A stretch of DNA of 64,000 nucleotides from Abditibacterium sp. (GTDB lineage Bacteria > Armatimonadota > Abditibacteriia > Abditibacteriales > Abditibacteriaceae): the NCBI GenBank assembly GCA_965199495.1, contig CBDASK010000003.1:4032001-4096000 (forward strand), given 5' to 3'. Of the stretch, positions 168 through 64,000 are shown piece by piece (the first letter of the stretch is position 1; each line of letters starts with the position of its first letter). A program made the translations under genes and the position numbers. The notes beneath the pieces are model-generated. The model had not been told where the DNA came from. It did not search any database and worked only from the letters and a program-made list of their open reading frames with translations.

Positions 168-509
168 TCAGTGACTGGCACCGAGCAACGCCGCGTCTTC
201 CGAGGGCAAAAGTTGTTGCAATTCGTGGTCTATAGCGACTTGTTCGGCGCGAGCCGTTTCGAGCGCCTCCATCAAACGCGTCACTGATTGCCGGTGGCGT
301 TCACCCAGCGCGGTCAACTGCTGATTCTGCTTTCTCAGCGCCACAGTTTCTTCTTCTAAAGCCCGATTGCGTGGCTGCAAAACGGCGGCTTCGTGGGCAT
401 CCGCTTGAGCGAGTAACTTTTCCAACTCGGCGCTTTGAGCCGATGTCGGTTCCAAAATGGCGCGCAGCTCGCGGATGCGTTGCCATTGGGCGGATGAAAG
501 CGATGTCAT
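168..509 (-). CDS. hypothetical coiled-coil protein
   Basis: Ala/Glu/Leu/Gln-rich helical ORF downstream of topA; ATG at 509 chosen over TTG 527. Confidence 0.6.
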   Translation of the reverse strand: MTSLSSAQWQRIRELRAILEPTSAQSAELEKLLAQADAHEAAVLQPRNRALEEETVALRKQNQQLTALGERHRQSVTRLMEALETARAEQVAIDHELQQLLPSEDAALLGASH

Positions 510-560
510 GCTTGGAGTTTGCCCCAAACAAAGCGGATTGCCAACCAGATTGGAGCGCCA

Positions 561-590
561 AAAAGCGCGCCGACATCAGTCGGCGCGCTT
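561..590 (-). terminator. intrinsic terminator after topA
   Basis: AAGCGCGCCGAC-ATCA-GTCGGCGCGCTT hairpin with a short T-run on the minus strand. Confidence 0.7.
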
Positions 591-605
591 GCGATTTGAC
601 TATAA

Positions 606-3158: not shown

Positions 3159-3161
3159 CAT

Positions 3162-4400
3162 TTAAACGACTTTCACAAACAAATTACCGGGCAGCTTTTT
3201 GACGGCGCCCTTGATTTCCAGCATCACGATGGCCGAGTTCGCCACCTTGATTTCCAGTCCGGCTTGCTCAGCCACGTCGTCCAAATGACGCGGCTCGACA
3301 TCAAGAGCGAGCCAGACTTTATTTTCGTCATCCGAGAAATCGGGGCGCGGGCCACTCAAAACAACAGAGCTTTGAATTTTCTTTGGCGTGCTGGATGTTG
3401 ATGTAGGGTGACGACGCGAAATCGTCGGCGCGGGTTCCGCTCCCTTTATAGATGCAAATTCCAAGTTCTCTTCGTCCATTTCTCCATCCGGCGCTAAAAT
3501 TTGGCCGGGTGCGCTAAACGAGTTGGCCAGATAATCCAATACATCGTCGGCACTTTGGGCCAGCATCGCGCCTTCCTGAATCAACTTGTGCGGCCCGTGG
3601 CTTTGTGGTTTATGCACATTGCCCGGAACCGCGAAAACTTCGCGGCCATGTTCGACGGCGAAGCGCGCGCTGATTAACGCGCCCGATTTTGCTTGCGCCT
3701 CGACAACCACAACCGCGCAACTCAAACCCGAAACCAGACGATTGCGCGCCGGAAAGTGCCAACTGGCGGGCGGCGTGCCCGGTGCCCATTCGCTCAGAAC
3801 CGCGCCATTGCGTTCGATTTCGAGCATCAAATCGCGGTTTTCCGGCGGATAAACCATATCCAAACCGCACGCTGTGACGGCAATCGTGCGTCCGCCGCCA
3901 TCCAAGGCGCCGCGATGGGCGGCGGTATCAATGCCGCGCGCCAAACCCGAAACCACCGTCCAACCAGCGCGCGCGAACTCCAATCCGAAACGATGCGCCA
4001 AACCGCGCCCATATTCCGTCACGTTGCGCGTGCCGACGATGGCGATGCAATGCGCATCGGCGGGCGTTAAGGCACCGCGCGCGAACAGCCACGCCGGAGT
4101 ATCGTCGTTGATTTGCGTTAAAAGTGGCGGAAATTCGGCCTCAGTCACAATGGAAATTGCGTGCGTTTCGAGGGCTTCGAGTTGAGGCGAAACATCGCGG
4201 CGGGCGGCATCGCGCAATTTTTCGATGGCGCGTTTGGAAAGTTTGTGTTGACTTTCCAACTGCTGCGGCGCCGACGTGGCTGCATCGAGCAGGGCTTGCG
4301 GCCCGTCAAATGCGGGCAATATTTCTCTGGCGCGAGCGGTCGGCAGAGCGGCGAGCGAAAGGCGAATCCAACTTTCGTGATCGCGGGCGGGCGTGGGCAT
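3162..4400 (-). CDS. dprA: DNA-processing protein DprA
   Basis: IAIVGTR, VVSGLARGIDTAAH, FPARNRLVSGLS, GREVFAVPG motifs; C-terminal wHTH; conserved position upstream of topA. Confidence 0.97.
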   Translation of the reverse strand: MPTPARDHESWIRLSLAALPTARAREILPAFDGPQALLDAATSAPQQLESQHKLSKRAIEKLRDAARRDVSPQLEALETHAISIVTEAEFPPLLTQINDDTPAWLFARGALTPADAHCIAIVGTRNVTEYGRGLAHRFGLEFARAGWTVVSGLARGIDTAAHRGALDGGGRTIAVTACGLDMVYPPENRDLMLEIERNGAVLSEWAPGTPPASWHFPARNRLVSGLSCAVVVVEAQAKSGALISARFAVEHGREVFAVPGNVHKPQSHGPHKLIQEGAMLAQSADDVLDYLANSFSAPGQILAPDGEMDEENLEFASIKGAEPAPTISRRHPTSTSSTPKKIQSSVVLSGPRPDFSDDENKVWLALDVEPRHLDDVAEQAGLEIKVANSAIVMLEIKGAVKKLPGNLFVKVV

Positions 4401-11630: not shown

Positions 11631-12824
11631 TTAAGTGCGCGGCACCTCGGCAATTGTGGTGAACGAACCGGTGACTAAAATCGTGTCGTCCAATGCAGCC
11701 ACGGCGCGTGCGCGCGCGACGGCGGCTTCGACGTTTTCTGCGGTTTCGACGTTTGGGTTGAACTTTTTCGCTTCGTTGGCCAACTCAGCCGCGGGCAGAG
11801 CGCGCGGCGAATCGGAGTGCGTGCAGATGATTTGGCGCGCGAGCGGCGCCAGAATCTCGACCATTTCGCGCCAGTTTTTATCGGACAAAATTCCCAAAAT
11901 CAAAATTGTATTTTCCGGCGCCAAGTTCAACTCTTCGCCCACATAGCGCGCCAAACGCGCGGCGCCGTCGGGATTGTTGGCTCCATCAATGATGACGCGC
12001 GGATTCGTCGCGATGATTTCGGCGCGTCCCGGCACTTGCGCGCCCTCAACTTCTGTTGGAATTTGCCAGCCCAAATCTTCGGAAAATTTGCGTGCGATTT
12101 CCAGCGCCAGCGCGCGATTGGTTTGCTGGAAATCGTCGGCGTCGGGCACTTCGACCGGAACGAAATGAACGCCGTTGTCCAAACAATACGCGTCGAAAAT
12201 TTCCAAGACGTTCGGTTTGGTTTCCGCCGTGAAAAACGTCCGGCCCGCGCGCGCGATACAAACTTTATCCGCCGCGATCTCTTCCAGCGTGTCGCCCAAT
12301 CTGTCCATGTGATCGAGCGCGACGTGCGTGACCGCCGAAACTTGCGGCGAGGTGACGTTGGTCGCGTCCCATTTGCCGCCCAGCCCAACTTCCAAAACTG
12401 CCGCGTCCACGTTTTGTCGCGCGAAATGCCATAATCCCAGAAAGGTCATCACCTCGAACTCGGTTGGTTGGCCCAACGCGCGCGCCGTGGCTGTGATGTG
12501 GGGCAGGGCGTCGTCGAGCAATTCGTCTAATTCGGTGTCGGAAACCGCGCCCTCGAACAGACCAGCACCGGGCAAAATACGAATGCGTTCGTTCCAATCG
12601 TAAAGGTGAGGCGAGGTGTAAAGTCCGATGCGGCGGCTATTTTGGGCCAGCGTGCGCGCGGTGAATTCTGCCGTCGAGCCTTTGCCGTTGGTGCCGCCGA
12701 TGAGAATGTGCGGATATTTGAGTTGCGGATTGTCGGTGCGCGCGAGCAGGTCTTCGATGCGTTGCAGGCCGGGGGCGATGCCGAAGCGTTGCAGGTCGGA
12801 TAAATAGGAAGCGAGGCGAGACAT
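11631..12824 (-). CDS. folC: folylpolyglutamate synthase/dihydrofolate synthase
   Basis: GTNGKGST, YTSPHL, LEVGLGG-WDATNV, DH---LG, VTGSF. Confidence 0.95.
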   Translation of the reverse strand: MSRLASYLSDLQRFGIAPGLQRIEDLLARTDNPQLKYPHILIGGTNGKGSTAEFTARTLAQNSRRIGLYTSPHLYDWNERIRILPGAGLFEGAVSDTELDELLDDALPHITATARALGQPTEFEVMTFLGLWHFARQNVDAAVLEVGLGGKWDATNVTSPQVSAVTHVALDHMDRLGDTLEEIAADKVCIARAGRTFFTAETKPNVLEIFDAYCLDNGVHFVPVEVPDADDFQQTNRALALEIARKFSEDLGWQIPTEVEGAQVPGRAEIIATNPRVIIDGANNPDGAARLARYVGEELNLAPENTILILGILSDKNWREMVEILAPLARQIICTHSDSPRALPAAELANEAKKFNPNVETAENVEAAVARARAVAALDDTILVTGSFTTIAEVPRT

Positions 12825-13078: not shown

Positions 13079-16000
13079 ATGCGATTGACCCGCTTCTCCG
13101 CTTCACTTTCTTCCTTTCTCTGGCTCTGTGCGTTGCTGAGTTGCGCGTGGCTTTCGAGCGCGCAAGCTCAAAATGCCAGTGGAGCGCCTGACGTTTCGGC
13201 GGTCGGTGCGCGTCTGCAAAAAGACATCAACGCGTTGACGGCGTTTCCATCGCGCGTGCCCGGCACCCTCGGTAACCGGCAGGCGGCGGCCTACGTGCAA
13301 AACCGTTTCGCCCAAATCGGTTTGAGCCAAGTGCGCGCCGACGATTATTTCGTTACCACGCCCGTCACCAAATCGGCCACTGTTTCGGTTGGCGGTCAAG
13401 ACCTCCCCGTTCTGCCGGTTTATCCGAACCAAGTCGTGGCCTCAACAACGCCGCTCGCTGGCATTAGCGGGCCTTTGGTTTATGTCGGCCAGGGCAAAGT
13501 CGCCGATTTTAACGGCAAAAAGATCGAAGGTTGCATCGCCGTTCTCGATTTTAATTCGGGCATGAACTGGATTACCGCCATTGATTTGGGGGCGCGCGCC
13601 ATTATTTTTCTCGAACCGCAGCAGTCCAATCGCGGCGAGGCCGAGCGCAAATTTACTTTCTTGCCCGTCGAAGTGCCGCGCTATTACGCGACAGCAGCCA
13701 CGGCGACGGCCCTTCGCGCGGCGGAAGGGCAAGATGCCAACCTCAAATCGTTGGTCGTGTGGGAAAAAATGCCAGTCAAGAACGTTTTGGGTTTCTTGCC
13801 GGGCAAAAACGCGCCCGCGAAAAAGGCCAATACCTTAATCGTCAACGCCTATTACGATTCGATGTCGGTCGTGCCCGACTTGGCGCCCGGCGCCGAAGCG
13901 GCGGGCAACTTGGCCTCGTTTCTCGAATTGGCGGCGCGACTCAAAGCCAATCCGCCTTCTTATAACGTGTTGTTCGTCGCCAATGGCTCGCACCATATGG
14001 CGTTAGCGGGCGCGCGCAACTTCATCGCCGATCACGTTATTGATAAAACCGGCGACGCTAATGACGCCAAAAAAGCCGAAATCGCGTCGTATCGTGGTTT
14101 CCTCAACCTTGATCTGACTTCGCGCACGCCCACGGTCGGTTTCTTCGCCAAATCGTGGTTTTACAATCAAATGGGCGTTGGCTCGGAAAATATTCTGCTC
14201 AACCAGTTCGGCGGCTTGGCCAAGAATCTGGGGCGCTACTCCGACGACATCGCCAAAAAAGAGAACCGTCCGACCGAAGAATTTTTCGTGGATGGCGTGA
14301 CCGGCAAAGACGGGCGCACTTGGCGTTCCTACCTGCCCTCGCTGGTGGCACTCGATTCCGAAGTCGCGACCGAAGCAGGTTTGCCGGGCGTTTCGTTTGC
14401 CACGGCTAACGATGCGCGTTTATATCAGGACACGCCGTTCGATACCGCCGACCGTTTGAATATGCCGAATTTGACGGCACAGGTCGGCACCGTCGAGAAT
14501 TTGATGCGCGAGTCGTTCAACGACATCGCGTATAGCGATGCCAAAAACCTCAACGTTTTTCCGCCGACCGATACGCTCTCCAAAAACTTCGGCTTTTTCA
14601 CCGGGCGTGGCATCTATCGTAACGTCGAGCAGGCGACCAGTTTTTTGCCCGACACGCCGATGCCCGATTCGCAAATCGGCGACGCTGATATGCAATCGGT
14701 TGGCGTTATCGGTTCGGATCGCGGCGGCAGTCCGCAAGAGCAGAAATCTTACGCGGGCGTGCGCGGCCTGATGATCGAGCGCGCCAGTTACTCTAAAGCG
14801 ACGGCAACCGATAAACAGGTCGCGCAGTTCACCTTTATTGGCCCGCGCGTGGGCGACCCCAAAGGTGGCGGCACGCCCAACCAAGAGTTCGAGGCGTTTA
14901 CCCTCGACCGCAATGGGCACATGATTTTCGCGCCCGACCGTGGCGCCGAACGCCAACGTTTTTCGCCTAACTTCAATAAAGCCACGGCGACGCTCTCTTA
15001 TAAAGACGTAAAACTCAACTCGATTAACCCCGATGCTTCGCTCATCGTGTTTAAGTCGCGCGCCACGACTTTGTTCGATACGCTCGATCAGCGTTATTTC
15101 ACCGTTTTGACCGAAATGACGGTTTTGGACGCCCGAACCGACGCCAACCCGGTGGAGTATGGTTATCTGCGCCCGGCGGCTGGCCCCGGCGTGGCTGCTA
15201 TGGAGCCGATTGCCATTGTCTTTGGCAAATCTAACAACGAGAGAAACTCCGATGGCACGCTAAAAGACCCCGAAAAGGGCGAGCGTTTCAAACTGATTAT
15301 GGCGGCGGGTCTACTGGGCAAGCGTTTAGTTTTGCTCAACACCGACCCGACGATCACCGCCAAAAACGATACGCGTGGCTTTGAGGGTCAGGGCTTCATG
15401 ATTCGCAATACCGACGAAACCAACCGCGTTACACGCGTTTCGTATCAGTCGGCCAAAGACCTGTGGGTCGTTGACCAGCAGCGTATTCGTCTGCTCAAGG
15501 GCTTTGGCATCAACAACGAACGCGTTGATGCGCTGCATGGCGCGGCGGGTTGTCCGCCGACGACCGATCCGAAATTCACTTCGGGTTTTCAATGCCCGCC
15601 CGAAAGCATCGCCGCGCCCAACGGCGGTTCGCTCGTCGCCGCGCAAAACGCGCTCGATACGCAGAAATTTGATGTGTTCTACCGCGAAGCGCGCCGCGCT
15701 TTCGGTCTGGAATCGCGCGCCTATCCCGACGTTGAAGCGACTTCGCAGGACGTTTTAAAGGGCATCATTTTCTATCTGGCGCTCTTGCTGCCGTTCGCCT
15801 ATTTCGTCGAGCGCATGCTGTTTGGTTTTCCCGACGTGCGCAAGCAAATTATGGGCACGTCGCTGGTCTTTTTGGCGGTCTTTGTCGCGATCCGCTTTGT
15901 TCATCCGGCCTTTGAGCTGGCGGCGACGCCGTTTATTATTCTGCTGGCGTTCGTGATTTTGGCGCTGACAGTTGTGGTGACGATATTCCTGCAATCGAAG

Positions 16001-43976: not shown

Positions 43977-44192
43977 ATGGAAGATATTTTAGAAACAATC
44001 GAGAATTTGCCGACCAGCGTTTACTACGGTAGCGTGGCTGGCTCCATCGCGCTTTCGCTGGCCCTGTTTTTCACCGGCAAACGTCAAGAGGCCATCTTCG
44101 TCGGCCTATGGGCGCCCACGATTTTGAATCTGGGCCTTTACAACAAACTGTTGCGTCCCTCCAAAGAGGGCAAAGACACCGATATTCCGTGA
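43977..44192 (+). CDS. small membrane protein
   Basis: AAGGAG SD; SIALSL-LF, AIFVGLWAPTIL-LGLYNKL. Confidence 0.8.
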   Translation: MEDILETIENLPTSVYYGSVAGSIALSLALFFTGKRQEAIFVGLWAPTILNLGLYNKLLRPSKEGKDTDIP

Positions 44193-47846: not shown

Positions 47847-49019
47847 ATGTCCCTTCAAGGCCAACTCCAAACCGAATTCGGCGATGCGCTCGAATTTCTC
47901 GCGTCCGATAACGCCTACATTGACAACGTAGAACCACAAACATTCGTCGCGCCGCGCGATGAAGACGCGGCGCGCGCGTTGATGCAATTTTGCGGGCGCG
48001 AAAAGTTGGCGTTAATCGCCATCGGCAACGCCACCAAAACCGAAATCGGCGCGCCGCCGACGCGTTTCGATGTGGCGATTTCGACGCGATATCTGAACCA
48101 AATCTTCGATCACGACGCGGGCAATGCCACCATCGAAGCGGGCGCGGGCGTTTCGCTGGGCGCGTTAAATTCCGCTGTTGGGAGCGCCAGACAATTCGTG
48201 CCGCTCGACGATGACGGCGGCACTTTGGGCGGTGTTGTCGCGTGCAACGCGTTTGGCCCGTCGAAATTGAAATGGGGCGCGCCACGCGATTTGGTTGTCG
48301 GCCTGCACGCGATGCTCAGCGATGGTCGGCACGTCAAAGGCGGCGCGAAAGTCGTGAAAAATGTGGCTGGATATGATTTGCCGAAATTGTTCGTCGGCTC
48401 GTTTGGCAGTCTCGGTTTGATCTCGCGCGTCACGATTCGCTTGCGCGCCCGCGATGCAGCCACGGCGACTTGGTGCGAACATTTTGCTTCGTTGGAAGAT
48501 TTGGAAAAGCGCGCCGATGAAATTCTTAACGGCGCGTTCGAGCCGACGATTTTGCGCGCGACCTGGAACGGCGAAAGTTGGCAGTTGCACGCCAAATTCG
48601 ATGGCGGGCAGGGCGCCGTGGCTGCTCAGTTGGAGCGTTTGCCCGCAACCGCCGATTTCGATGATTCAGCCGCGATTCAATCGAACTGGCAACTGCGCGC
48701 GCAACTGCCGATAACGCGCACCACAAATTGGCTTTGCGCCGCGCGCAATGATGGCGCGACGGCGTTCGATTGGGACGCCGGATTGGGCATCGCGCGCGCG
48801 AGTTTCGGCGATTGTTCGCCGCAAATCATCGCGCGCTTGCGCAGTTTGTGCGGCGAAAGTGGCGGATGGCTACGCGTAGAAAAGGCGCCGCTCGCACAAA
48901 AAACGCCCGATTTAATCTGGGGCGCGCCACGCGCCGACGCGCCGTTGATGCGCGGTTTGAAAGCGGCTTACGATGCGGCGAATGTGTGCGCGCCGGGGCG
49001 ATTCGTTGGCGGAATGTAA
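47847..49019 (+). CDS. FAD-binding oxidoreductase, GlcE-like
   Basis: TLGGVVA, GAKVVKNVAGYDL-KL--GS-GSLG, LK-AYD----APGRF. Confidence 0.9.
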   Translation: MSLQGQLQTEFGDALEFLASDNAYIDNVEPQTFVAPRDEDAARALMQFCGREKLALIAIGNATKTEIGAPPTRFDVAISTRYLNQIFDHDAGNATIEAGAGVSLGALNSAVGSARQFVPLDDDGGTLGGVVACNAFGPSKLKWGAPRDLVVGLHAMLSDGRHVKGGAKVVKNVAGYDLPKLFVGSFGSLGLISRVTIRLRARDAATATWCEHFASLEDLEKRADEILNGAFEPTILRATWNGESWQLHAKFDGGQGAVAAQLERLPATADFDDSAAIQSNWQLRAQLPITRTTNWLCAARNDGATAFDWDAGLGIARASFGDCSPQIIARLRSLCGESGGWLRVEKAPLAQKTPDLIWGAPRADAPLMRGLKAAYDAANVCAPGRFVGGM

Positions 49020-50526: not shown

Positions 50527-52203
50527 CTTTCTCACCGCGTCCAGCGTGTCAATTTCTTCGACCGGTTTATCGTCACGCTGCCGTAAAATGCGCGGGAATC
50601 GCAAAGCATAACCGCTTTTATGGCGCGGCGACGGCTGCACTTTGTCGAAGGTAATTTCTAAAACGATTTTCGGCTCGACCGTGCGCACGCGTCCGTGCGC
50701 GAAAGTTTGAATCGTATGCGCGACAAACCATTCGGATAATTCGGTGATTTCGGCGTCGGTCAAACCTGAATAGGCTTTGCCGACGTTTAAAAGCGTCGGG
50801 TCGTCGGCTGATGCGCGCACGGCGAAGGTGTAATCCGAATAGAATTTCGAGCGTCGCCCGCTGCCGGATTCAACCGATGTGACGACGACATCGAGCGTGT
50901 CAGTCGCCTTTTTGACCTTGAGCCACTGGCGCCCGCGCTTGCCCGGTTTGTAATCGGAAGTCGGGTCTTTGATCATCAAACCTTCGTTGCCACGCGCGCG
51001 CGCCGCATCGAATTCGGCGTCTATATTCCCGATATTATCGAACAATTGCGAAGCCGCCAAACGCGTTACGGCGCCATCGAAATTCAACTTTTCCAAAATC
51101 GCGCGACGCTGTTCCAACGGCAATTCGAGTTCGTTTTGTCCCGCGAACAAAACATCGTAAGCCACGAACGCGAGCGGCGTGGCTGCTATCACGTCGGCGC
51201 TCGGCTTCTTGCGATTCAAACGCGTTTGCAGCGATTGAAACGGTGCGATTTCTCCGCTTTCGCCCAAAGGCACGATTTCACCATCCAAAACCAAACCCGC
51301 TTCGTTATTCAAAATCGCCGCGAGGGGCGCGCCTAAATCGGGAAAAGCGCCGGTAATTTCGTTGAGCGCGCGCGAAAACAGCGCGACGCGCGCGGCACCA
51401 TAGTTTTCGCCGTGTAATGCTTCGTCGTGCGCGCGGTGCGGCGCGATATGAACTTGCGCGCGGATTCCATCGAATTTATCTTCGACGCGAAACGGCGTCG
51501 GCATCGTTTTCTCGATGTCTTCGTTATCTTTGGCGGGTGTCGCCAACATAAACTTGAGCGGGTGAAACAGCTCGAAAACTGCTTCGTCCAAACGATTATG
51601 CCGCGCCAAAACCGCGACTTCGCCCAAATCGCCCGACAACATATTGGCGCGCTGCACACGCGCCAATTCGACTTGAAACAAACGCGCTAAAGCGTCTTCG
51701 ACCGCGCTTTCTTTGAGGCCGATGCGCAAATCGCCGCTCAACATTTTGGCGAAATACTTCGCTTCCAACGCCGTCGCGCGCTTCAAGGTTTGCGCGACCA
51801 ATTCCGCTTTGGCCTTGCTACCGCGCGTCGCTGCCAATTGCGCCAACGCGCTTTCGATTTCCGATAAATTCAACGTGGTTTGTGTCGGCGCGTCGGGCCA
51901 AACTTCCCACGTCTCGAACGCGGTCTCGCCCGGATCGCCGGTTTTCACTAATCGCTGCGCGAGCCAATTGGCGTCGGCGCCACTGACTTGTTGCGTTACG
52001 CTGGACAAAGCCGCGCCGCCGATATTGACAACGCGATTCTCGCGCAGCGGAAACGGCGTGCCACCAAAATAAAGCGCGGCGCGGCGCAAATCGTCGTCGG
52101 GCAATTGGGCGAAGTATTCGCCGAGTATTTTGGCTTTTTCGAGGCGCGATTGGGTGGCGCCGATAGCTTCGGCGGTCTGACAAAACGAAATAAACGCGGA
52201 CAT
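50515..52203 (-). CDS. ATP-dependent DNA ligase
   Basis: EDKFDGIRAQ motif I, LDGE, EGLMIK, Y-PG-R---WLKVK, LRFPR; N-terminal DNA-binding domain. Confidence 0.96.
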   Translation of the reverse strand: MSAFISFCQTAEAIGATQSRLEKAKILGEYFAQLPDDDLRRAALYFGGTPFPLRENRVVNIGGAALSSVTQQVSGADANWLAQRLVKTGDPGETAFETWEVWPDAPTQTTLNLSEIESALAQLAATRGSKAKAELVAQTLKRATALEAKYFAKMLSGDLRIGLKESAVEDALARLFQVELARVQRANMLSGDLGEVAVLARHNRLDEAVFELFHPLKFMLATPAKDNEDIEKTMPTPFRVEDKFDGIRAQVHIAPHRAHDEALHGENYGAARVALFSRALNEITGAFPDLGAPLAAILNNEAGLVLDGEIVPLGESGEIAPFQSLQTRLNRKKPSADVIAATPLAFVAYDVLFAGQNELELPLEQRRAILEKLNFDGAVTRLAASQLFDNIGNIDAEFDAARARGNEGLMIKDPTSDYKPGKRGRQWLKVKKATDTLDVVVTSVESGSGRRSKFYSDYTFAVRASADDPTLLNVGKAYSGLTDAEITELSEWFVAHTIQTFAHGRVRTVEPKIVLEITFDKVQPSPRHKSGYALRFPRILRQRDDKPVEEIDTLDAVRKLTG

Positions 52204-53198: not shown

Positions 53199-54116
53199 CT
53201 ACCCGCGCGCCAGTCGCAGCACTTGGTCAGCCACGCCGACCGACACTTCGACGCCCGCGTTCCATTCGATGAAGTCTTCGCACACGCCGTCGCCAAATAT
53301 CACGCCGCCTTGCGGCATTTGCGAAACCAAATCGAGCGTTTCGCCCTGCGCGATTTCGCCCGCGATAATATCGGCGCCCGAAGCCAAACTCTCGAATGGT
53401 TCGCGCACGCAAAACTCCAATTTGCGTGCGTCGGGCGCGAAACGATAATTGGCCTCGTTGGTGTCTTCGCCACACAACTTCGCCGCACCGCACACAATCG
53501 AGCGGCGCCAGCCAGTCGAACCGGCACCCGTCGAAACGATAACGCCGCTCGAAATCTGCGCTTCGCTCTGTCCCCGATACGAAATTTGATAGCGCGCCGC
53601 GACGTGGCTGCTGGCGCCGATAAACAAATCGTTGACCGCCAATATTTGCTGTCCGTCGGCAGTGCGCGCGCGTGCCATCGTCACATTTTGTATCGGCAGA
53701 TTATTATTTGCCAAGCGCTTCCAAACGAGGGGCGCATCGTTCAGGCGAAACGGCAGCAACACGCCATCAATATGACGCGGGTCGGGATTGAATGCGACGA
53801 CGGTTTGGCCGCGCAGATACTTCGCTAAATTCACGACCAAACCATCCGGCCCCAACGCGACGACGGTATCTCCGTCGCCGAATTGAAACATCGGCAAATT
53901 CTCGCGCTCAATCCATTGCGTGCGGGTGCCGCGCGGCAATTCGGCTTTGAGTTGCTCGCACGCGTTTTTGTAGGTTTCGTGCTGCGATTCGTAGCGCCCA
54001 AAATTTTGGCCGAGATGTTCGATATAAAAGCGCGCTTGCTCGCGCGTATTGTATCGTTCGATTAATGCTTCGAGCGGTGTCTTTTTGGTGACGACAACTA
54101 TTTTTTCGAGTGCCAT
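53199..54116 (-). CDS. NAD kinase-like protein
   Basis: LGPDG (GGDG variant), AVNDLF, SSGVIVSTGAGSTGW; AAGGAG SD with ATG at 54116. Confidence 0.85.
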   Translation of the reverse strand: MALEKIVVVTKKTPLEALIERYNTREQARFYIEHLGQNFGRYESQHETYKNACEQLKAELPRGTRTQWIERENLPMFQFGDGDTVVALGPDGLVVNLAKYLRGQTVVAFNPDPRHIDGVLLPFRLNDAPLVWKRLANNNLPIQNVTMARARTADGQQILAVNDLFIGASSHVAARYQISYRGQSEAQISSGVIVSTGAGSTGWRRSIVCGAAKLCGEDTNEANYRFAPDARKLEFCVREPFESLASGADIIAGEIAQGETLDLVSQMPQGGVIFGDGVCEDFIEWNAGVEVSVGVADQVLRLARG

Positions 54117-54263: not shown

Positions 54264-55078
54264 CCTTGATCTTCGTTGAACTGTTTCTCGAACGGCTCGA
54301 AGTTTCCCTGCCGCAATCCGACATCTAAAACCGCAAACAAGAGCAACTCGAATTGTCCATCGTATTTTTCGGCGACTTCGCCAAACGCGTGCGCAACCAT
54401 CGTCGGATCGTTTTTAAAGGCGCCGCAACCCCAAGCGCCCAAAACCAACGCTTTGTGTCCATTTGACACAGCGATATCGAAAACTCTCGCGATGCGCGCG
54501 CGCCACAATTCGCGCAACTCGGCGAGCGGCATCGCTAAACCGTTATTCAGGTTGGGCGCCGCCGCCGTAATAATCGAACAGGGCCACGGCGCGCACAAAT
54601 TATCGAACTCGTCGCGAATTACAGCCACGTCGGGCGAGTAGAGCATCATATCGGAATAGCGTGGCGCGCGATGCGTTTGGTGATAGTTGTAAAACTCGCG
54701 TTGCGCGCCAATGCACTGCGCCAAAACCGAGTTGCGGCACAGATATTCTTCCTGCGCGCGCGCACCGTTGAGCCAGCCGCCGCCAACATTGGTCGCCGAA
54801 GCGAAATTGAGCGATGCCGCGTTTTTGCCCGCGTCGAACAGACGGCGCGCCGCGCTAAACGTCGTTTCGTTGGTGACTTCGATGCGCGTCGTAAATTTCG
54901 CTTCGCCCAAAGTTTCGGGTTTCCAATCGGGCGCATAAATCCGCGTTTGGTTGGTGGCATTCTCGATATCGGCTTCGATGTCGTGCGCGTGGCTGCTTGC
55001 ATCGGTATAGAATCCGTCGCGTGTAATTTGTGCGGTTTCGCGCGCGATTTCGGCGGCGCGTGAGCGTGAAATATTCAT
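54260..55078 (-). CDS. TIGR02452 family microbial-type poly(ADP-ribose) glycohydrolase
   Basis: LNFASA--GGGWLNGARAQEEYLCR, YSP-V, LVLGAWGCGAFKNDP. Confidence 0.93.
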   Translation of the reverse strand: MNISRSRAAEIARETAQITRDGFYTDASSHAHDIEADIENATNQTRIYAPDWKPETLGEAKFTTRIEVTNETTFSAARRLFDAGKNAASLNFASATNVGGGWLNGARAQEEYLCRNSVLAQCIGAQREFYNYHQTHRAPRYSDMMLYSPDVAVIRDEFDNLCAPWPCSIITAAAPNLNNGLAMPLAELRELWRARIARVFDIAVSNGHKALVLGAWGCGAFKNDPTMVAHAFGEVAEKYDGQFELLLFAVLDVGLRQGNFEPFEKQFNEDQG

Positions 55079-56108: not shown

Positions 56109-56125
56109 AATTAGTTTTATCTCCT

Positions 56126-56143
56126 GTGTAAATACCACACTAA
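56126..56143. promoter_or_regulatory. NrtR-type operator 3
   Basis: GTGT-AAATACC-ACAC-TAA abutting the SPFH gene SD. Confidence 0.75.
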
Positions 56144-56610
56144 CTCGATTCGCCAAAGCGAACGATGATGATTTGCAATTCTGTGTCTGCGCTTTGTATT
56201 TCTTCGCTCATCCAGCGCAGCGATTTATCTGGCCCGATTCCGCCAGTCCCCGCTCCGATGAGCGGAAAAGCCAGCGAATTCAATTTCATTTCGCGCGCCA
56301 GTCGCAGCGCGTTCGAGGTAGATCGGCGAATCGAAAGTTCGCTCGCCGTCCACGTCCATTGCAATCCTGCGACGTGAATAATGGTTTGGAACGGCAACTT
56401 CCCGGCGCCCGTGGCTACGGCTTGGCCGAGTTGTAACGTGCCGAATTTTCTTAATTCGCGGAACGGCTCCCAGCCCGCGCGCTTTTTGATGGCGCCCGAA
56501 ACTCCATGCGGCCAGAGCAGCCACGGCGGAATAAAGTTGCGATTCCACGGGTTGACGATGGCTTCGACGCTTTGGTCGAGCAGGTCGCCGGTTAAGATTT
56601 GAAGTGGCAT
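56140..56610 (-). CDS. macro domain protein (ADP-ribose binding/hydrolase)
   Basis: GDL---V-AIVN--N, GVSGAI, G-AV-TGAG-LP---IIHVAG, SLAFPLIGAGTGG. Confidence 0.93.
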   Translation of the reverse strand: MPLQILTGDLLDQSVEAIVNPWNRNFIPPWLLWPHGVSGAIKKRAGWEPFRELRKFGTLQLGQAVATGAGKLPFQTIIHVAGLQWTWTASELSIRRSTSNALRLAREMKLNSLAFPLIGAGTGGIGPDKSLRWMSEEIQSADTELQIIIVRFGESS

Positions 56611-56657
56611 TTTGTTGGTTAATCGAGGGGAAAATCGAGCTTATGTTTTAAGGATGT

Positions 56658-56888: not shown

Positions 56889-56897
56889 GTTCTGATT

Positions 56898-57365: not shown

Positions 57366-57369
57366 CTCC

Positions 57370-57387
57370 GTGTGAATTTCACACTAT
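57370..57387. promoter_or_regulatory. NrtR-type operator 2
   Basis: GTGT-GAATTTC-ACAC-TAT abutting the NADAR SD. Confidence 0.75.
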
Positions 57388-57409
57388 CTCTCGCGATTAA
57401 AAATCGCGT

Positions 57410-58356: not shown

Positions 58357-60318
58357 ATGAATAATTTGAGTTACGCCGCTTTGTGCGGTCTTTTGGTAGC
58401 GGGCTTCGCGATTCGGGCGCCGCAGGCGCGCGCGTTAAATGGCGAGAGTGCGCCCGCAGGTGCGCCCACAACCGCGACAGGTTCGACGGCAAAGTTTTCC
58501 GTGCCGGTTGATTTCTTCGAGGATGGCGTGGGGGCATGGACGCGCAACGATAAAACCAAGTCGGGTTTATCGGATATTGTGACGACGGCTCCGGGCGCGA
58601 CGGCGACTTCCAAAACGGCGGCGCGCCTGAGTTTTAAAAGCGCGACCGCTTCGTGGGCGAGCATTTCTCGTCCCGTGGATGGCACGAGTTGGGCGCGCAT
58701 CGGCGCGCGCGAGTTGGTGTTTTCGCTCAACGGCAGCGGCGATACCAAAGGCGTGGATTTGCAGTTGCGCGCCAAAATCGGCGATAGCGATACGGTTTAT
58801 TCGTTGCCGTTGCCAGTCAAAATCAACAACACCAAATGGCGCACCGTTGTTGTGCCACTCGCCGAATTCAAAAATGCCAAAGGCGAGCCGGTGACCGAGC
58901 AACTGGACAACGTTTATCTGTTGCAATTCGCGCAGAGCGGCGATTGGAGTTCGCGTTTTTTCGATATAGACGATATGCTGGTGCGCGGCAACGGCGTGCC
59001 GATTGCGCCCAAGGCGGCGCCCATCGCCGGGACAACGGCTCCTGACACTTCGACGGCACCAAGTGCGCCCGCTTTGCCGACGGGCGCCGTTGCGGTCAAC
59101 GTGGATTTCAAACGCGTCGCGGGCACGATTCGCGCTTCGGCCAACGTTGCGGTGATGGCACCTTACGAGGCGACCAACACGCAATCGCTGGAATTGTCGC
59201 AGGCCTATCGCGAGGCGCTGGCGACGCTCAGCCCCAAGTTCGTGCGACTCGACGTGGCTGCTCTGGCCGACCTGACCGATTCATCGCGTCCGGCCTTCAA
59301 CTTTACGCGTTTGGTGAGCGCGGTCAAGCGCGCCCGCGCCGTGGGCGCCGAGCCGCTCATCGCGATCACCAATCCCAACGAGTGGGGTTTGGACGCCAAA
59401 GGTTACGGCGTGTTGGCGGCTTCGGCGGCCCGCGCGCTCAATCCGCAGGGTGGTGCTCTGGCGCGCTATTTCGAGATGGCGATTTGGAGCAACGATGTCA
59501 AAGCCAGCGACGCCGTGGCGTTTTACAATGCGGGTTATAGCGGCGTGAAAGGCGTCAGCGCTCGGCTCATCGTGGGCGGCTACGGCGCTCCGGCGGGTGA
59601 CGTGGCCAGCCAAAAGGCGATTTTGGGCGGCGCCAAAGGTTTGGATTTTCTGTCGAGCCGTTACTATTCCGCCAATAGCGGCACGCCCAGCGACAGCGCG
59701 TTACTGGCCGATGCGCGCACCGTGACCGATTTGAAGACCGCCGCCGGCCTGCTCGACAGAAGCCGCTTCAAGCGCGCGCCGCTTTATGTGACGAGCGCCA
59801 ATCTGTCCAACGCGCGCAATGCGGGCGATTTCGTGCCCTCGGACAATCGTCTGATCGGCCCGTTGGCGGGCGCGTGGTGGGCGCAGTTCATGGGTTCGGG
59901 TTCAAGATTGGCCGATCAGATTTTTCATAACGACGCGACCAATCCCGAATGGGGACTTTTGCTGGTAGACAGCAAAGCTCAGGCATTTCCCGCCTATTAC
60001 TCGATGTATCTGTGGAATACCTACATGGGCGGCGGCACGCAACGCGTGGTGGCCGATAGCGCCAACGACGCGGTTTACGCGGCGGCGACCAATACCAAAA
60101 CCGCGCACAACTTGCTTTTGGTCAATACGACAGCTCTGCCGCAGGTCGCGCAGGTCGGCATTCGCGGATTCCCGACGCTTCGTCAGGTGCGCATGCACAC
60201 CAACGACGATCCCAAAGCGGGCATCCGCACGGTGAAACTGCCCAATAGCCCGTTTCAGACGTTGCGATTGTTGCCGTATAGCGTCAACGTTGTGCAGTTC
60301 ATCGAACCACCGAAATAA
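58357..60318 (+). CDS. secreted protein with carbohydrate-binding-like N-terminal domain and glycoside hydrolase-like barrel
   Basis: signal peptide ending QARA; WRTVVVPLAEF and FDIDD (CBM11/CIA30-like); LLLVN and LLPYSV C-terminal GH-associated motifs. Confidence 0.6.
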   Translation: MNNLSYAALCGLLVAGFAIRAPQARALNGESAPAGAPTTATGSTAKFSVPVDFFEDGVGAWTRNDKTKSGLSDIVTTAPGATATSKTAARLSFKSATASWASISRPVDGTSWARIGARELVFSLNGSGDTKGVDLQLRAKIGDSDTVYSLPLPVKINNTKWRTVVVPLAEFKNAKGEPVTEQLDNVYLLQFAQSGDWSSRFFDIDDMLVRGNGVPIAPKAAPIAGTTAPDTSTAPSAPALPTGAVAVNVDFKRVAGTIRASANVAVMAPYEATNTQSLELSQAYREALATLSPKFVRLDVAALADLTDSSRPAFNFTRLVSAVKRARAVGAEPLIAITNPNEWGLDAKGYGVLAASAARALNPQGGALARYFEMAIWSNDVKASDAVAFYNAGYSGVKGVSARLIVGGYGAPAGDVASQKAILGGAKGLDFLSSRYYSANSGTPSDSALLADARTVTDLKTAAGLLDRSRFKRAPLYVTSANLSNARNAGDFVPSDNRLIGPLAGAWWAQFMGSGSRLADQIFHNDATNPEWGLLLVDSKAQAFPAYYSMYLWNTYMGGGTQRVVADSANDAVYAAATNTKTAHNLLLVNTTALPQVAQVGIRGFPTLRQVRMHTNDDPKAGIRTVKLPNSPFQTLRLLPYSVNVVQFIEPPK

Positions 60319-60447: not shown

Positions 60448-60476
60448 TTGTATTATAAGGAGGGATATGGTATAAT
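60448..60476 (+). promoter_or_regulatory. sigma70 promoter of gyrB
   Basis: TTGTAT-N17-TATAAT with extended TGn -10. Confidence 0.75.
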
Positions 60477-60591
60477 TTATTTCAGTGAAAGCGCGCCGAA
60501 GTTGGGATTTAATGGTTCCCGCGACGCGCTTTTTTGCTGTGCGCTTGAAGACTGAAAAAATCTTGGAAGGGCACTCAAAGGATCACTTTAT

Positions 60592-63500
60592 ATGGCAGAA
60601 ACTCAAACTCCCCCTGTGGATGAAAAAGTCGGCGGCAATTATACCGCCGAGAATATCACCTGGCTCGAAGGTCTCGAAGCCGTGCGTCACCGCCCCGGAA
60701 TGTATATCGGTTCGACCGATCAAAAAGGCATTTTCGTCCTATGCCGCGAAGTCCTCGATAACTCGACCGACGAAGCGATGGGTGGCCACGCCGATACCGT
60801 CACCGTGCGCCTGATGCCCGATAACGTGGTTTCGGTCGAAGACAATGGACGTGGCATTCCGGTTGACATCCACCCTAAAACCGGGCGCAGTGCGCTCGAA
60901 TTGGTGATGACCGAATTGCACGCGGGCGGAAAATTCGACGCCGACAATTATAAAGTTGCGGCGGGTCTGCACGGCGTGGGCGTTTCGGTCGTCAATGCGC
61001 TCTCGGATTTTACCGAAGTTTTGGTTGACCGTTCGGGCAAAAAGTGGAAGCAACGCTACGAAAAGGGCGTGCCGATTGGCGAAGTCGAAGCGATTGGCAA
61101 CGCCGACGGAACTGGCACGACGGTGACTTACAAGGCCGACGCCTCGATTTTCCCGTCGATTGATTTGGATGTCGAAACCGTCGTCAAGCGTTTGCGCGAA
61201 TTGTCGTATTTGGTGCCGACCTGCCAGTTCATTTTGGAGAACTATCGCGTCGAGCCGCCAAAAATCGAAGTGTTTCAGAATAAAGGCGGTTTGGCTTCGT
61301 TTTGCGAGCATTTGAACCGCAACAAAACCGTCGTCAACACCAAGGCGATTCGTTTCGAGGGCAAGCGCGAAGACGAGACCGGCAAAAAGTCCATCGAAGT
61401 CGAAGTCGCCATTCAATACAACGAGGGTTATCACGACACGATTATCGCGTTTGGCAATTCGATTCATAACATTCACGGCGGTTTGCACGAGTCGGGCTTC
61501 AAAACTGGCCTGACGCGCGCGATCAACTCTTACGCGCGCAAGAAGAACATTCTCAAAGAAAAAGACGAGCGTCTCGAAGGCGAAGATGTGCGCGAAGGTT
61601 TGGCGGCGGTCGTTTCGATCAAAGTTTCCGACCCGATTTTCAACGGTCAGGCCAAAGAGCGTCTCAACGGGCCGAGTTTCATTGATGGAGCGGTCAACTC
61701 GCTGGTCGGCGAAGGTTTGGCCGAGTATTTCGAGGAAAACCCGCGCATCGCCGAAAAGATCGTCGCCAAGTGCATCACCGCCAAACAGGCGCGCGACGCG
61801 GCTAAGAAAGCGTCGGAATTGGTCAAGCGCAAAAGCGCTTTGGAAAGCGATAGTTTGCCGGGCAAACTGGCCGACTGCAGCGAAAAAGACCCGCGCAAAT
61901 GCGAAATATTTCTGGTCGAGGGCGATTCGGCCGGGGGCTGTTTTTCGGGCGATACCCAAGTGGCTCTGGCCGATGGGCGCAATTTGTCGTTCCGCGATTT
62001 GGTCGCCGAACAAGCGCGTGGCATTGAGCATTTTTGCTATACGATTCGGCGCGACGGCAAAATCGGTTTGGAGCGCGCGCTTCATGCGCGCGTAACCAAA
62101 CGCGACGCGGCGGTTGTCACGGTGACTTTGGATAACGGCGAGCGTATCGTTTGCACGCCCAATCATAAGTTCATGTTGCGCGACGGCTCGTATTGCGAAG
62201 CCGCGCAGTTGAAAGCGGATGATTCGTTGATGCCGCTTTATCGTAAGTTGTCGGATGTGAGCGAAAAGAGCATCACAATTGGTGGTTACGAGATGGCGAT
62301 GGATCCGAAGTCGGGCACATGGTTATTTACGCACGTTTTGGCCGATTGGTGGAATCGCTGGCAGGGCGTTTACAGTCGCGAAAGCGGTGAGCATTGTCAT
62401 CACGTTGACTTCAATAAGCGCAACAACAATCCGACGAATATCGAGCGATTGTCCGCCGATGAGCATTTGGCGTTACATCGCGCGCACGTTGGGCGCACTT
62501 TGCATCGGCCCGATGTTATCGAGAAATGTCGTCAGATTCGCCAAAGCGACGAGTTTCGGCGCGCGATGAGCGCGCGAATGCAAGAGCCGGAGACGCGCGA
62601 ACTTCTGTCGAAGCAGGCGAAGGAGCAATGGAAAGACGAAGATTACCGCGCGTTTATGCTGGCTAAATGGCGCGAGTTTTACGATAACAACGTCGAATAC
62701 CGCGCGCTCAATGCCGATCAGTTGGATGCGGCTCAACGCGAATTTTGGAGTAGCGAAGAGAATCGTGCCGCGCAATCTGAGCGGACGCGCGAGTTCTTTG
62801 CCGCGCATCCCGAAGCGCGCGAAGTTCTGCGCGTTGCGGCGAACGAGCAGTGGGACGACGCCGAGTTGCGTTCTTGGCGCGCCGAAAAGACGAAATCGCA
62901 GTGGACGCCAGAGTTTCGCGCGAGCCGCACGGCGGCTTTGAAAGCGACTTATCTGCGCAAATCGTTGCGCGCGTTGCGCGATTGCGCGGGCGACATCGAA
63001 ACTTACGAAGCGAATCGTCGCGCCAATCGCGACAAATCGGTTTTGCGTTTCGATTCGTTGTGTGAGCGTTATTTCGGCGGCCAAAAAGAGGGCGCTCTTG
63101 AAGCGGCGGCTTCTTTTAATCATCGCGTCGTTTGCGTCGAAACGCTCGAAGAAACTTTGGACGTTTATGACATCGAAGTTCCCGGCACGCACAACTTCGC
63201 GTTGGCTTCGGGTGTGTTCGTTCACAACAGTGCCAAGCAGGGACGCGACCGTTCGTTTCAGGCGATTCTGCCCCTGCGCGGTAAAATTATCAACGTCGAG
63301 AAGAATCGGTTGGACAAAATTCTGGGCAACGAAGAAGTGCGCGCGATGATTACGGCCTTTGGCACCGGCATCGCCGACCGCATTGATTACGACGACATCG
63401 CCGATCAACTCGAAGACGGCCAGCTCGAATTCGATGAAGACGGCAACGCGCTGGAACCGATTGACGGCGACGATGAGAATTCGGACGGCGATAGCAGCCA

Positions 63501-64000
63501 CGCCGTCAGCGAGTTGGAATTGGAACTCGATGGCGCTGCCGATTTAAACACCGATGGCTCCAACGCGGCCAACGCCAAAAACAACGTGGACGCGACCCAG
63601 GTCAAGATGCGCCGCGCGCGTGGTGGCCGCGTGGACTCGGCGTTCGATATGTCGCGATTGCGCTACGACCGCATTATCATCATGTGTGACGCGGACGTTG
63701 ACGGTTCGCACATCCGCACGCTTTTGCTGACCTTCCTGTTTCGCTACATGCGACCTTTGGTCGAAACCGGTCATATCTATATCGCCAAGCCGCCGTTGTA
63801 TTCGATTCGGCGCGGCAAGAAGTTGGAATACGCCTACACCGACGCCGAGCGCGACCGCATGGTCAAGGGCACGCGCGCCGATGTCGGGCGCTACAAAGGT
63901 TTGGGCGAGATGAACCCCGAAGAGTTGTGGGAAACCACGATGTTGCCGTCGAATCGCTTGCTGATTCAAGTGACGATGGATGACGCCGCCGCCGCCGATC
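60592..64000 (+). CDS. gyrB: DNA gyrase subunit B (intein-containing; runs off the window end)
   Basis: absent from the ORF track; manual translation gives LEGLEAVRHRPGMYIG, DNGRGIP, LHAGGKF, GLHGVGVSVVNALS, EGDSAGG, PLRGK, DADVDGSHI, YKGLGEM. Confidence 0.97.
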   Translation, partial: MAETQTPPVDEKVGGNYTAENITWLEGLEAVRHRPGMYIGSTDQKGIFVLCREVLDNSTDEAMGGHADTVTVRLMPDNVVSVEDNGRGIPVDIHPKTGRSALELVMTELHAGGKFDADNYKVAAGLHGVGVSVVNALSDFTEVLVDRSGKKWKQRYEKGVPIGEVEAIGNADGTGTTVTYKADASIFPSIDLDVETVVKRLRELSYLVPTCQFILENYRVEPPKIEVFQNKGGLASFCEHLNRNKTVVNTKAIRFEGKREDETGKKSIEVEVAIQYNEGYHDTIIAFGNSIHNIHGGLHESGFKTGLTRAINSYARKKNILKEKDERLEGEDVREGLAAVVSIKVSDPIFNGQAKERLNGPSFIDGAVNSLVGEGLAEYFEENPRIAEKIVAKCITAKQARDAAKKASELVKRKSALESDSLPGKLADCSEKDPRKCEIFLVEGDSAGGCFSGDTQVALADGRNLSFRDLVAEQARGIEHFCYTIRRDGKIGLERALHARVTKRDAAVVTVTLDNGERIVCTPNHKFMLRDGSYCEAAQLKADDSLMPLYRKLSDVSEKSITIGGYEMAMDPKSGTWLFTHVLADWWNRWQGVYSRESGEHCHHVDFNKRNNNPTNIERLSADEHLALHRAHVGRTLHRPDVIEKCRQIRQSDEFRRAMSARMQEPETRELLSKQAKEQWKDEDYRAFMLAKWREFYDNNVEYRALNADQLDAAQREFWSSEENRAAQSERTREFFAAHPEAREVLRVAANEQWDDAELRSWRAEKTKSQWTPEFRASRTAALKATYLRKSLRALRDCAGDIETYEANRRANRDKSVLRFDSLCERYFGGQKEGALEAAASFNHRVVCVETLEETLDVYDIEVPGTHNFALASGVFVHNSAKQGRDRSFQAILPLRGKIINVEKNRLDKILGNEEVRAMITAFGTGIADRIDYDDIADQLEDGQLEFDEDGNALEPIDGDDENSDGDSSHAVSELELELDGAADLNTDGSNAANAKNNVDATQVKMRRARGGRVDSAFDMSRLRYDRIIIMCDADVDGSHIRTLLLTFLFRYMRPLVETGHIYIAKPPLYSIRRGKKLEYAYTDAERDRMVKGTRADVGRYKGLGEMNPEELWETTMLPSNRLLIQVTMDDAAAAD
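61939..63228 (+). mobile_element. intein with HNH homing endonuclease (430 aa)
   Basis: EGDSAGG/CFSGDT... to ...VYDIEVPGTHNFALASGVFVHN/SAKQ; block B CTPNHKF; HNH motif HCHHVDFNKRNNNPTNI. Confidence 0.97.

Follow-up and report, generated by a model that had tools for sequence, protein, structure and literature searches.

A hyper-abundant, non-palindromic DNA word in three Abditibacterium species: a possible directional tag of self DNA

Abditibacterium is a little known genus of soil bacteria, and the Abditibacteriota lineage to which it belongs has barely been studied. We analysed a stretch of 64,000 nucleotides (the window) corresponding to positions 4032001-4096000 of C3, the 4.72-Mb chromosome of an Abditibacterium genome (G000) that also comprises two small contigs. 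The window is studded with a short word, CGTGGCTGC, present in 31 exact copies, 18 on the plus and 13 on the minus strand, against an expectation of 0.90 and a maximum of 4 in 100 dinucleotide-preserving shuffles. As described below, the word is repeated over the whole chromosome and in two sister species, is conserved at individual sites, is almost missing from acquired DNA, and may serve as a tag by which these bacteria recognize their own DNA. A literature search found no report of this word.

An earlier note on the same DNA (the original prediction), made from the letters alone, had listed 30 copies and proposed an uptake, recombination or nucleoid-protein signal. All 30 coordinates are correct, a single minus-strand copy at 56517 having been overlooked. 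Flanks had been given as CG[A/C/G] upstream of 26 of 30 copies and A/T downstream of 27 of 30; over 31 copies the recount yields 27/31 and 28/31. The seven near-variants named at that time are all present, five having the core followed by T where the 9-mer has its last C and two reading CGCCGTGGCTC. We counted four forms of the word: the 9-mer CGTGGCTGC, the 8-mer core CGTGGCTG (42 copies in the window), the 11-mer CGNCGTGGCTG (37 copies) and a 12-base pattern. The remark that AT-rich genes are devoid of copies holds for the open reading frame (ORF) 49936-50526 (GC 0.36) and for mrr (52245-53162, GC 0.45), neither of which contains a core copy. The copies in the window are as follows, a word copy being an exact CGTGGCTGC and a core copy being CGTGGCTG with another next base.

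370..378, plus strand: word copy
3268..3276, minus strand: core copy, next base not C
4085..4093, minus strand: core copy, next base T; kept in L007, one mismatch in L001
4275..4283, plus strand: word copy inside dprA; core kept in L001 and L007, flank differs in L001
7362..7370, minus strand: word copy, kept in L007
7818..7826, plus strand: word copy, kept in L007; absent at the corresponding place in L002
11695..11703, minus strand: word copy
12486..12494, plus strand: core copy, next base T
13694..13702, minus strand: word copy
15190..15198, plus strand: word copy
22403..22411, plus strand: word copy
23631..23639, plus strand: word copy
26603..26611, minus strand: word copy
27001..27009, plus strand: core copy, next base T
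28763..28771, minus strand: core copy, next base G
29996..30004, minus strand: word copy
31455..31463, plus strand: word copy
32992..33000, plus strand: word copy
33066..33074, minus strand: word copy
34365..34373, plus strand: word copy
34873..34881, minus strand: word copy
35289..35297, plus strand: core copy, next base T
37885..37913: inverted pair of word copies (37885 minus, 37905 plus), 20 nt start to start, inside ORF 35462-38029
40729..40737, plus strand: word copy
41419..41427, minus strand: word copy
41647..41655, minus strand: word copy
42284..42292, minus strand: core copy, next base G
44033..44041, plus strand: core copy, next base G, without the CG prefix
44510..44518, plus strand: word copy
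45874..45882, minus strand: core copy, next base T
46908..46916, plus strand: word copy
48456..48464, minus strand: word copy
48617..48625, plus strand: word copy
51178..51186, plus strand: word copy
53227..53235, minus strand: core copy, next base A
53603..53611, plus strand: word copy
54621..54629, minus strand: core copy, next base T
54988..54996, plus strand: word copy
56517..56525, minus strand: word copy, the one overlooked earlier
59253..59261, plus strand: word copy
63494..63502, minus strand: word copy

The chromosome as a whole contains 1780 copies of the 9-mer (863 plus, 917 minus; 0.38 per kb) and 3083 of the core (1525 plus, 1558 minus), which is the invariant part of the word. 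Among the chromosomal core copies, position -3 is C in 75% and position -2 is G in 82%, T occurs at -1 in only 4%, and +1 is C in 58% and +2 T or A in 70%; the flank consensus thus gives CG-N-CGTGGCTG-(C)-(T/A) as the full word. The word is non-palindromic, as CGTGGCTG differs from its reverse complement. An order-3 Markov model predicts 77 copies of the 9-mer, a 23-fold excess, and 35 copies of the 11-mer, of which 2179 are observed, a 62-fold excess; an order-5 model raises these expectations to 499 and 285, though it already contains most of the word. Maximal-order z-scores barely singled out the word and were abandoned for lower orders, as the expectation is then dominated by the word's own sub-words. 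The perfect 12-base pattern is found 1350 times, and its single-mismatch variants at core positions number between 6 and 92 per position (three other bases summed). For comparison, the counts given by Bakkali (2007, PMC1939737) are 438 observed against 3 expected for the uptake sequence of A. pleuropneumoniae, and 1008 against 151 for Chi in E. coli; by these figures, the enrichment of the Abditibacterium word is of the order of that of uptake sequences, and far above that of Chi.

Most copies are located in genes. Our own gene calls on C3 (3694 genes, 86% coverage) place 2004 of the 2179 11-mers inside genes, 170 in intergenic regions and 5 on gene edges, and 92% of the G000 copies are single sites inside genes. 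Coding copies are distributed over the reading frames as follows.

Sense frame 2: 895 copies, typical peptide x-V-A-A
Antisense frame 1: 651 copies, typical peptide A-A-T-x
Antisense frame 2: 248 copies
Sense frame 1: 149 copies
Antisense frame 0: 35 copies
Sense frame 0: 26 copies

The original prediction had seen five of the six frames in use and had argued that the word is not a protein motif; the use of multiple frames is confirmed, the number is not, as all six occur genome-wide. We permuted synonymous codons within each gene, which leaves every protein and the codon usage of each gene unchanged: 36 sense and 24 antisense copies were obtained (10 replicates, maxima 42 and 34), whereas the genome itself has 1069 and 934. 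A protein-conditioned codon-pair model, whose training genes are themselves laden with the word, gave 94 and 51 (5 replicates). Enrichment thus survives codon- and dicodon-level controls and extends well beyond the window. The word is a DNA-level signal and not a coding effect, with an excess of about 30-fold over shuffles that preserve protein and codon usage, and the protein-motif interpretation can be dismissed as first suggested.

Relatives found through the topoisomerase TopA place G000 within Abditibacterium (family Abditibacteriaceae), and the word is confined to a small part of this genus. Counts of the 12-base pattern across 41 relatives are 1350 for G000, 1047 for G011 and 431 for G004; the other 38, including 10 further congeners, have 36 copies at most, which is about the level of a reversed-pattern control. 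The 8-mer core behaves likewise, with 3091, 2676 and 3503 copies in G000, G011 and G004 and 131-529, like the control, in the other 24 genomes of the family. None of the 401 genomes sampled from the phylum exceeds 49 beyond these three, in agreement with the lineage-specific signal that had been proposed. The three genomes form a tight clade by protein identity to G000: 84-96% for G011, 67-91% for G004, and at most 61% for other congeners. The word is therefore restricted to three sister species of Abditibacterium.

Within this clade the word has diverged into two dialects. G011 has the consensus of G000, and not that of G004, where the core is as dense as in G000 (0.69 per kb in a 400-kb sample) but is set in other flanks, (gccgta)GGACGTGGCTGGTGTC; 400-kb samples of the word-less congeners G012 and G009 contain nothing comparable. 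At orthologous places the core is often common to G000 and G004, each with its own flanks, and word-less relatives are unrelated there. In the G004 sample (G004:C8:100001-500000), 160 of 277 copies lie inside genes (0.48 per kb), as in G000. Another 88 of the 277 pair up in intergenic hairpins, of which there are about 44 in the 400 kb; each has two inverted arms of 22 nt, containing the G004 dialect, around an A/T-rich loop of about 7-11 nt. These hairpins occur in all intergenic contexts, divergent ones included, and are thus not simply terminators. G000 has no intergenic hairpin family of this type.

Alignment of the sister genomes reveals how sites are kept and how they arise. In 218 kb aligned between G000 and G011 (85.0% identity), 114 sites are common, 42 are specific to G000 and 27 to G011, that is, a conservation of 114/156 (73%) from G000 to G011 and of 114/141 (81%) in the other direction. 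Over the same alignment, conservation is 38% for other 8-mers and 42% for those that match the core in composition: the sites are actively kept, at about twice the conservation of control 8-mers. In 252 kb aligned between G000 and G004 (79.9% identity), 46 of 82 G004 sites are common. Sites specific to G000 differ from the G011 sequence by 1, 2, 3, 4 and 5 mismatches in 18, 8, 7, 7 and 4 cases, respectively, and gaps are rare at lineage-specific sites (5 of 49 for G000, 1 of 28 for G011), so sites arise by substitution and not by insertion. Sites with four or five mismatches are commoner than expected from a binomial estimate at 15% divergence, which we liken to the remark made in Treangen (2008, PMC2397512) that some recent copies of the DNA uptake sequence (DUS) of Neisseria are too diverged from their orthologue for single point changes.

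The two orientations of the word are equally frequent along the entire chromosome. Plus and minus counts are about equal in each of 47 bins of 100 kb (chi-square 32.1, 46 degrees of freedom, p = 0.94), and the lack of replichore polarity, put forward as a discriminating test in the original prediction, is thereby established. GC skew on C3 is very weak and no clear origin or terminus can be read from it; equal strands in all bins nonetheless imply that, wherever the origin lies, there is no polarity of the type known for Chi or for FtsK orienting polar sequences (KOPS). Spacing over all copies is slightly more even than random, with a coefficient of variation (CV) of 0.93, 77 gaps above 5 kb where 117 are expected, and 8.6% of gaps below 200 nt where 12.3% are expected. 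Much more conspicuous is the effect of orientation. Pairs of core copies counted by distance, with the same expectation for both orientations in each bin, are distributed as follows.

8-40 nt: 4 pairs in the same orientation, 32 expected, 85 in opposite orientation (an excess of hairpin-like pairs)
40-100 nt: 8 in the same orientation, 60 expected, 53 opposite
100-200 nt: 29 in the same orientation, 101 expected, 89 opposite
200-400 nt: 59 in the same orientation, 201 expected, 183 opposite
400-800 nt: 215 in the same orientation, 403 expected, 418 opposite
800-1600 nt: 693 in the same orientation, 806 expected, 883 opposite

When orientation labels were shuffled over fixed positions (300 shuffles), 526 ± 15 same-orientation core pairs were obtained at 41-800 nt, with a minimum of 470, compared to 311 observed; for the 11-mer the corresponding values are 254 ± 11 and 114. 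This avoidance is present both within and between genes, is repeated in the G011 sample (1, 1, 2, 2 and 12 same-orientation pairs, with 2, 4, 6, 12 and 24 expected), and is absent from eight other frequent 8-mers. Neighbouring copies are oppositely oriented in 63% of cases, and the copies of each strand have a spacing CV of 0.85 (4.5% of gaps below 500 nt, 15% expected). The inverted pairs in excess at 8-40 nt are mostly located inside genes, not at terminators; beyond 40 nt, inverted pairs have no preference for convergent or divergent arrangement. Avoidance limited to the same orientation implies that a copy makes a second one redundant only when both point the same way. An orientation-blind reader binding duplex DNA would give avoidance regardless of orientation, which differs from the observed pattern, and the word appears to be read on one strand, or by a reader moving in one direction. 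The original prediction is partly supported: a DNA-level signal is confirmed, the avoidance points to a strand- or direction-specific reader, and the signal may serve uptake, recombination or a nucleoid protein.

Acquired DNA is nearly free of the word; depletion in islands was among the checks proposed in the original prediction. The 24.7-kb contig C1 has one 9-mer where about 9 would be found at chromosomal density, and the 64.6-kb contig C2 has two where about 24 would be found, i.e. 3 copies in 89 kb instead of about 33. C2 is a tailed phage, encoding a terminase, a head protease, a major head protein, a tail protein, a tape measure protein of 2400 aa, RecT, and Mu Gam-like and ParB-like proteins; C1 is plasmid-like, with an ArdC-like anti-restriction protein and an invertase. 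On the chromosome, the longest word-free gaps cluster in a region of low GC at 1.12-1.225 Mb. This integrase-rich defence island (C3:1119000-1225000) encodes three large serine recombinases, a type I restriction-modification (R-M) system, a TIR protein, an Eco57I-like methylase beside a 1981-aa DEAD/MZB/PLD-like helicase, and a second DNA polymerase III alpha-like gene. Another word-free gap coincides with an array resembling clustered regularly interspaced short palindromic repeats (CRISPR) at C3:2766480-2775003, with 131 repeats on one strand at a period of 63-68 nt.

On this sequence evidence we tentatively favour a self tag similar to the DUS and to the uptake signal sequence (USS), which a bias in uptake or recombination would maintain and which would be read from one strand, an explanation to which we give somewhat less than an even chance. 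It is ranked first because the genomic signature matches that of DUS and USS in most respects, a sister species has its own dialect, and the degree of enrichment is that of uptake sequences, not of Chi. CG-N-CGTGGCTG-(C) would then be the 'self' word of a three-species clade, written into the core chromosome from about 2200 (11-mer) to about 3100 times (core) by base substitutions, mostly at silent or tolerated codon positions, and maintained there in the face of neutral decay. The most likely cause would be that the uptake of DNA from the same species, its recombination, or both, depend on sequence: fragments or strands carrying the word would be incorporated more often, and the word would spread through biased gene conversion. 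A molecular drive of this kind has been proposed for DUS in Neisseriaceae and for USS in Pasteurellaceae. Since copies are over-dispersed within each orientation, irrespective of those in the other, the reader would be specific to one strand or one direction. Enrichment independent of coding, equal strands, near-absence from mobile DNA, clade restriction, the dialect, excess conservation, origin by substitution and orientation-specific spacing are observed; the reader and the drive are what we infer.

Resemblance to the known uptake sequences is extensive. Like the DUS of Neisseriaceae with its dialects (Frye et al. 2013, PMC3630211), the Abditibacterium word is a non-palindromic word of 10-12 bases that recurs every 1-2 kb or so, equally on both strands and mostly in genes; in addition, it is poor in acquired DNA, has species dialects around a common core, occurs as close inverted pairs (a property of both DUS and USS; Treangen 2008, PMC2397512), and includes lineage-specific sites too diverged for single point changes. 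One difference is that the inverted pairs of G000 are mostly found inside genes and not in terminators. With the USS of Pasteurellaceae (Bakkali 2007, PMC1939737; van Passel 2008, PMC2346458) it shares a comparable over-representation, one-off variants graded by position, and preferred frames that encode common peptides; it differs in having no AT-rich flanks. Uptake in H. influenzae is reported as independent of USS orientation in the account of Bakkali (2007, PMC1939737), whereas the two orientations in Abditibacterium behave as separate series. Among the papers listed in a literature search, none was on orientation-specific spacing of uptake sequences.

Several observations weigh against an uptake tag. 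The avoidance extends up to about 800 nt for the same orientation, with opposite pairs at expectation, and a classical uptake model predicts avoidance in both. The word is sparser between genes (0.25 per kb) than in coding sequence (0.50 per kb) in G000. G000 sites are found in G004 in 46 of 171 cases, which is the control level (27-28.5%), and the asymmetry with the reverse comparison implies that most G000 and G011 sites arose, or that G004 sites were lost or re-flanked, after the split. The other frequent words of Abditibacteriaceae differ wholly from this one, and two are palindromic (GAGTACTC and GCAAGTACTTGC), which looks closer to the highly iterated palindrome HIP1 than to dialects of a single uptake signal; this family context is a caution against taking every case as uptake. 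Abditibacterium belongs to another phylum than Neisseria, and a search of G000 with PF16732 (ComP_DUS) gave no match, nor did it match any control genome. We take the neisserial DUS dialects to be unrelated in sequence to the Abditibacterium word. Profiling of about a dozen proteins found no clade-specific receptor, and ComEA and two minor pilins occur in 5 of 5 tested genomes, three of them word-less.

Competence and pilus genes, which the original prediction had proposed to search for, are indeed present in G000: ComEC (862 aa, found in 13 of 13 congeners), ComEA with SLBB and HHH_3 domains, DprA (in the window at 3162-4400), and a PilB-PilT-PilC-PilD cluster followed by four pilin-like genes, with 8 secretin, 8 T2SSE and 47 N_methyl pilin-like matches over the genome. 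However, the same genes exist in word-less congeners and do not discriminate; ComEA and the type IV pilus minor pilins were rejected on that ground as clade-specific receptors, and dprA, described earlier as compatible with competence, counts as no evidence. The 618-aa pilin-like protein of the pilus cluster (C3:868592-870448; L182:12592-14448) evolves very fast, with 57% identity to G011 and 47% to G004, where TopA has 96% and 91%; this gives no information on specificity. None of the papers listed in a literature search joins Abditibacterium with competence or uptake sequences.

A first rival explanation is that a helicase-nuclease entering at DNA ends reads the word on one strand while translocating and then switches from degradation to recombination, in the manner of Chi, thereby protecting self DNA but not foreign DNA; each direction of travel would require a series of sites of its own. 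Chi, in bacteria with RecBCD or AddAB, is likewise a species-specific, non-palindromic word of the core genome, read directionally and missing from many phages. Such a mechanism would account for the orientation-specific spacing (311 pairs against 526 ± 15, repeated in G011) and for phage and plasmid DNA nearly without the word, the phage contig also encoding a Mu Gam-like end-protection protein, but neither RecC (PF04257) nor an AddAB-like pair was found in G000 (completeness 95%), no co-orientation with replication exists anywhere, and known Chi sites are shorter and much less enriched. Divergence around oriented sites has no clear asymmetry either (0.856 against 0.849 between G000 and G011, 0.806 against 0.803 between G000 and G004). 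The only PDDEXK_1 matches in G000 are a 299-aa ORF and a Dna2-like protein of 1421 aa, with a PD-(D/E)XK nuclease at its N-terminus and an SF1B helicase at its C-terminus, encoded about 15 kb past the end of the window (C3:4111365-4115630, minus strand) beside a gene for a bacterial topoisomerase IB. Among 13 congeners, this protein occurs in the three word-bearing genomes G000, G004 and G011 only; by comparison, each of four genes picked systematically from the window is present in 10-13 of 13. Homologues of 40-45% identity exist in 22 of the 401 phylum genomes, among them G017, of another genus, which has both a 42%-identical homologue and a hyper-abundant word of its own (200-kb sample). 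Three facts weaken the Dna2-like protein as reader. In G011 it is a remnant (residues about 680-1421, with a frameshift and a stop) and the word is still maintained; the homologue-bearing genomes G049, G039, G038 and G103 have no iterated word in samples of 80, 60, 33 and 20 kb, small sizes at which the G000 word is nonetheless visible in G000 samples of 80 and 20 kb; and the genomes of L006, L010 and L012, three Abditibacteriaceae with other iterated words, have no homologue. We keep this protein as a low-probability candidate reader, and regard the Chi-like explanation as unlikely. About equally doubtful is a directional self-DNA signal of an undescribed kind: a lattice on each strand, with copies about 1 kb or more apart, used by a strand-tracking reader (the Dna2-like nuclease, or a single-strand import or recombination apparatus) to tell own from foreign DNA in a phylum without RecBCD or AddAB, the other Abditibacteriaceae words being fast-evolving specificities of one family-wide system.

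The remaining explanations dispense with a directional reader. In a repair drive similar to that envisaged for HIP1 (GCGATCGC, cyanobacteria), a methyltransferase or a mismatch-nicking enzyme would make near-cognate repair converge on the word, as in very-short-patch repair, with no role in uptake. Like HIP1, the word is hyper-abundant, has arisen in genes through substitutions and is retained at orthologous sites; its one-off variants are rare at core positions; moreover, sister genera carry true iterated palindromes of restriction-site type (GAGTACTC, GCAAGTACTTGC) in genes such as topA, which fits specificities that change as fast as those of R-M systems. G004 has a Vsr / GIY-YIG / C5-methylase cassette (G004:C5:1-1865, L148) at the end of a small contig, and G000 has two C5-methylase genes. 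Yet the word is not palindromic, its 8-11 specified bases exceed usual methylase sites, one of the two G000 methylases sits in the word-free island, and same-orientation avoidance over hundreds of bases is left unexplained. No cognate methylase or Vsr is common to the three species: Vsr is above the cut-off in G004 only among 13 congeners, sub-threshold in G000, where its neighbours are an integrase and a DUF58 gene, and not found in G011. A Vsr drive was rejected for this reason, and the repair explanation in general is quite improbable. Binding sites of a clade-specific nucleoid or chromosome-organizing protein, kept by selection for chromosome function, would fit a word whose copies are rather evenly spaced over the entire core chromosome (CV 0.93; 77 against 117 gaps above 5 kb), and which is conserved above background and missing from mobile DNA. 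However, about 3000 precise sites of 8-11 bp, mostly in genes, far exceed known organizing sites, a duplex binder should not yield avoidance in the same orientation only, and no candidate protein was found; we consider this very unlikely. Least credible is an origin in repetitive extragenic palindromic (REP) elements and their associated tyrosine transposases (RAYT), in another mobile palindromic element, or in a codon or peptide bias. The 88 of 277 G004 copies in intergenic hairpins of two 22-nt arms, and the presence of Y1 transposase genes, recall such elements; against this, 92% of the G000 copies are single and in genes, in all six frames, made by substitution and about 30-fold over shuffles, Y1_Tnp genes occur in 12 of 13 congeners irrespective of the word with no consistent flanking by it, and the extragenic palindromic units that flank Y1 transposase genes in REP/RAYT systems were not seen, extragenic hairpins being limited to G004. 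A REP/RAYT origin was rejected on these grounds, and for G000 an artefact of mobile elements or of coding can almost be dismissed.

To our knowledge, marking of the own genome for uptake is accepted for two families of Proteobacteria only. If the reading as an uptake-related self tag is true, Abditibacteriota would provide a third case, with a sister dialect, and the phenomenon would be more general. It would also provide a young system, with three species and two dialects, for finding the reader by comparison. The orientation-specific spacing is a new and concrete constraint on any mechanism. As a practical matter, the word can serve to tell foreign DNA apart in these genomes, and would be worth including in DNA intended for transforming them.

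Hyper-abundant words are common in Abditibacteriaceae, and their sequences change completely between lineages. The palindrome GAGTACTC(G) has 19 sites in 22 kb of L006 and, as ATCGAGTACTCGAT, 6 sites in 3 kb of L012, with one topA site common to both. Two of the family's words are palindromes lying in conserved genes such as topA. CTGCAAGTACTTGCAG occurs 14 times in 22 kb of L010, often as the centre of longer hairpins. The word of G017 (C14:400001-600000, L199-L208) is a hairpin, AGTACGGTCGA-at-TCGACCGTACT followed by T's, with 0.97 cores per kb. Such complete turnover fits any fast-evolving specificity, be it a receptor, a nuclease or a methylase. The frequent word of L015 was rejected as a dispersed word, being a tandem array of about 19 copies of the heptamer GGTCAGT (L015:18579-18705).

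Two further features were noted. C3 contains an element resembling a miniature inverted-repeat transposable element, of about 95-120 nt with long terminal inverted repeats (e.g. 83229-83323 and 102792-102913), whose 13-mer arm word has 153 copies on both strands and no relation to the word studied here. In the window, positions 50515-58102 hold genes for an ATP-dependent DNA ligase, Mrr, a microbial PARG, an SPFH protein, a Macro domain protein, NADAR and an NrtR-like Nudix regulator. This cluster is an ADP-ribose/NAD-related set, and the AT-rich ORF 49936-50526 that adjoins it has no family match.

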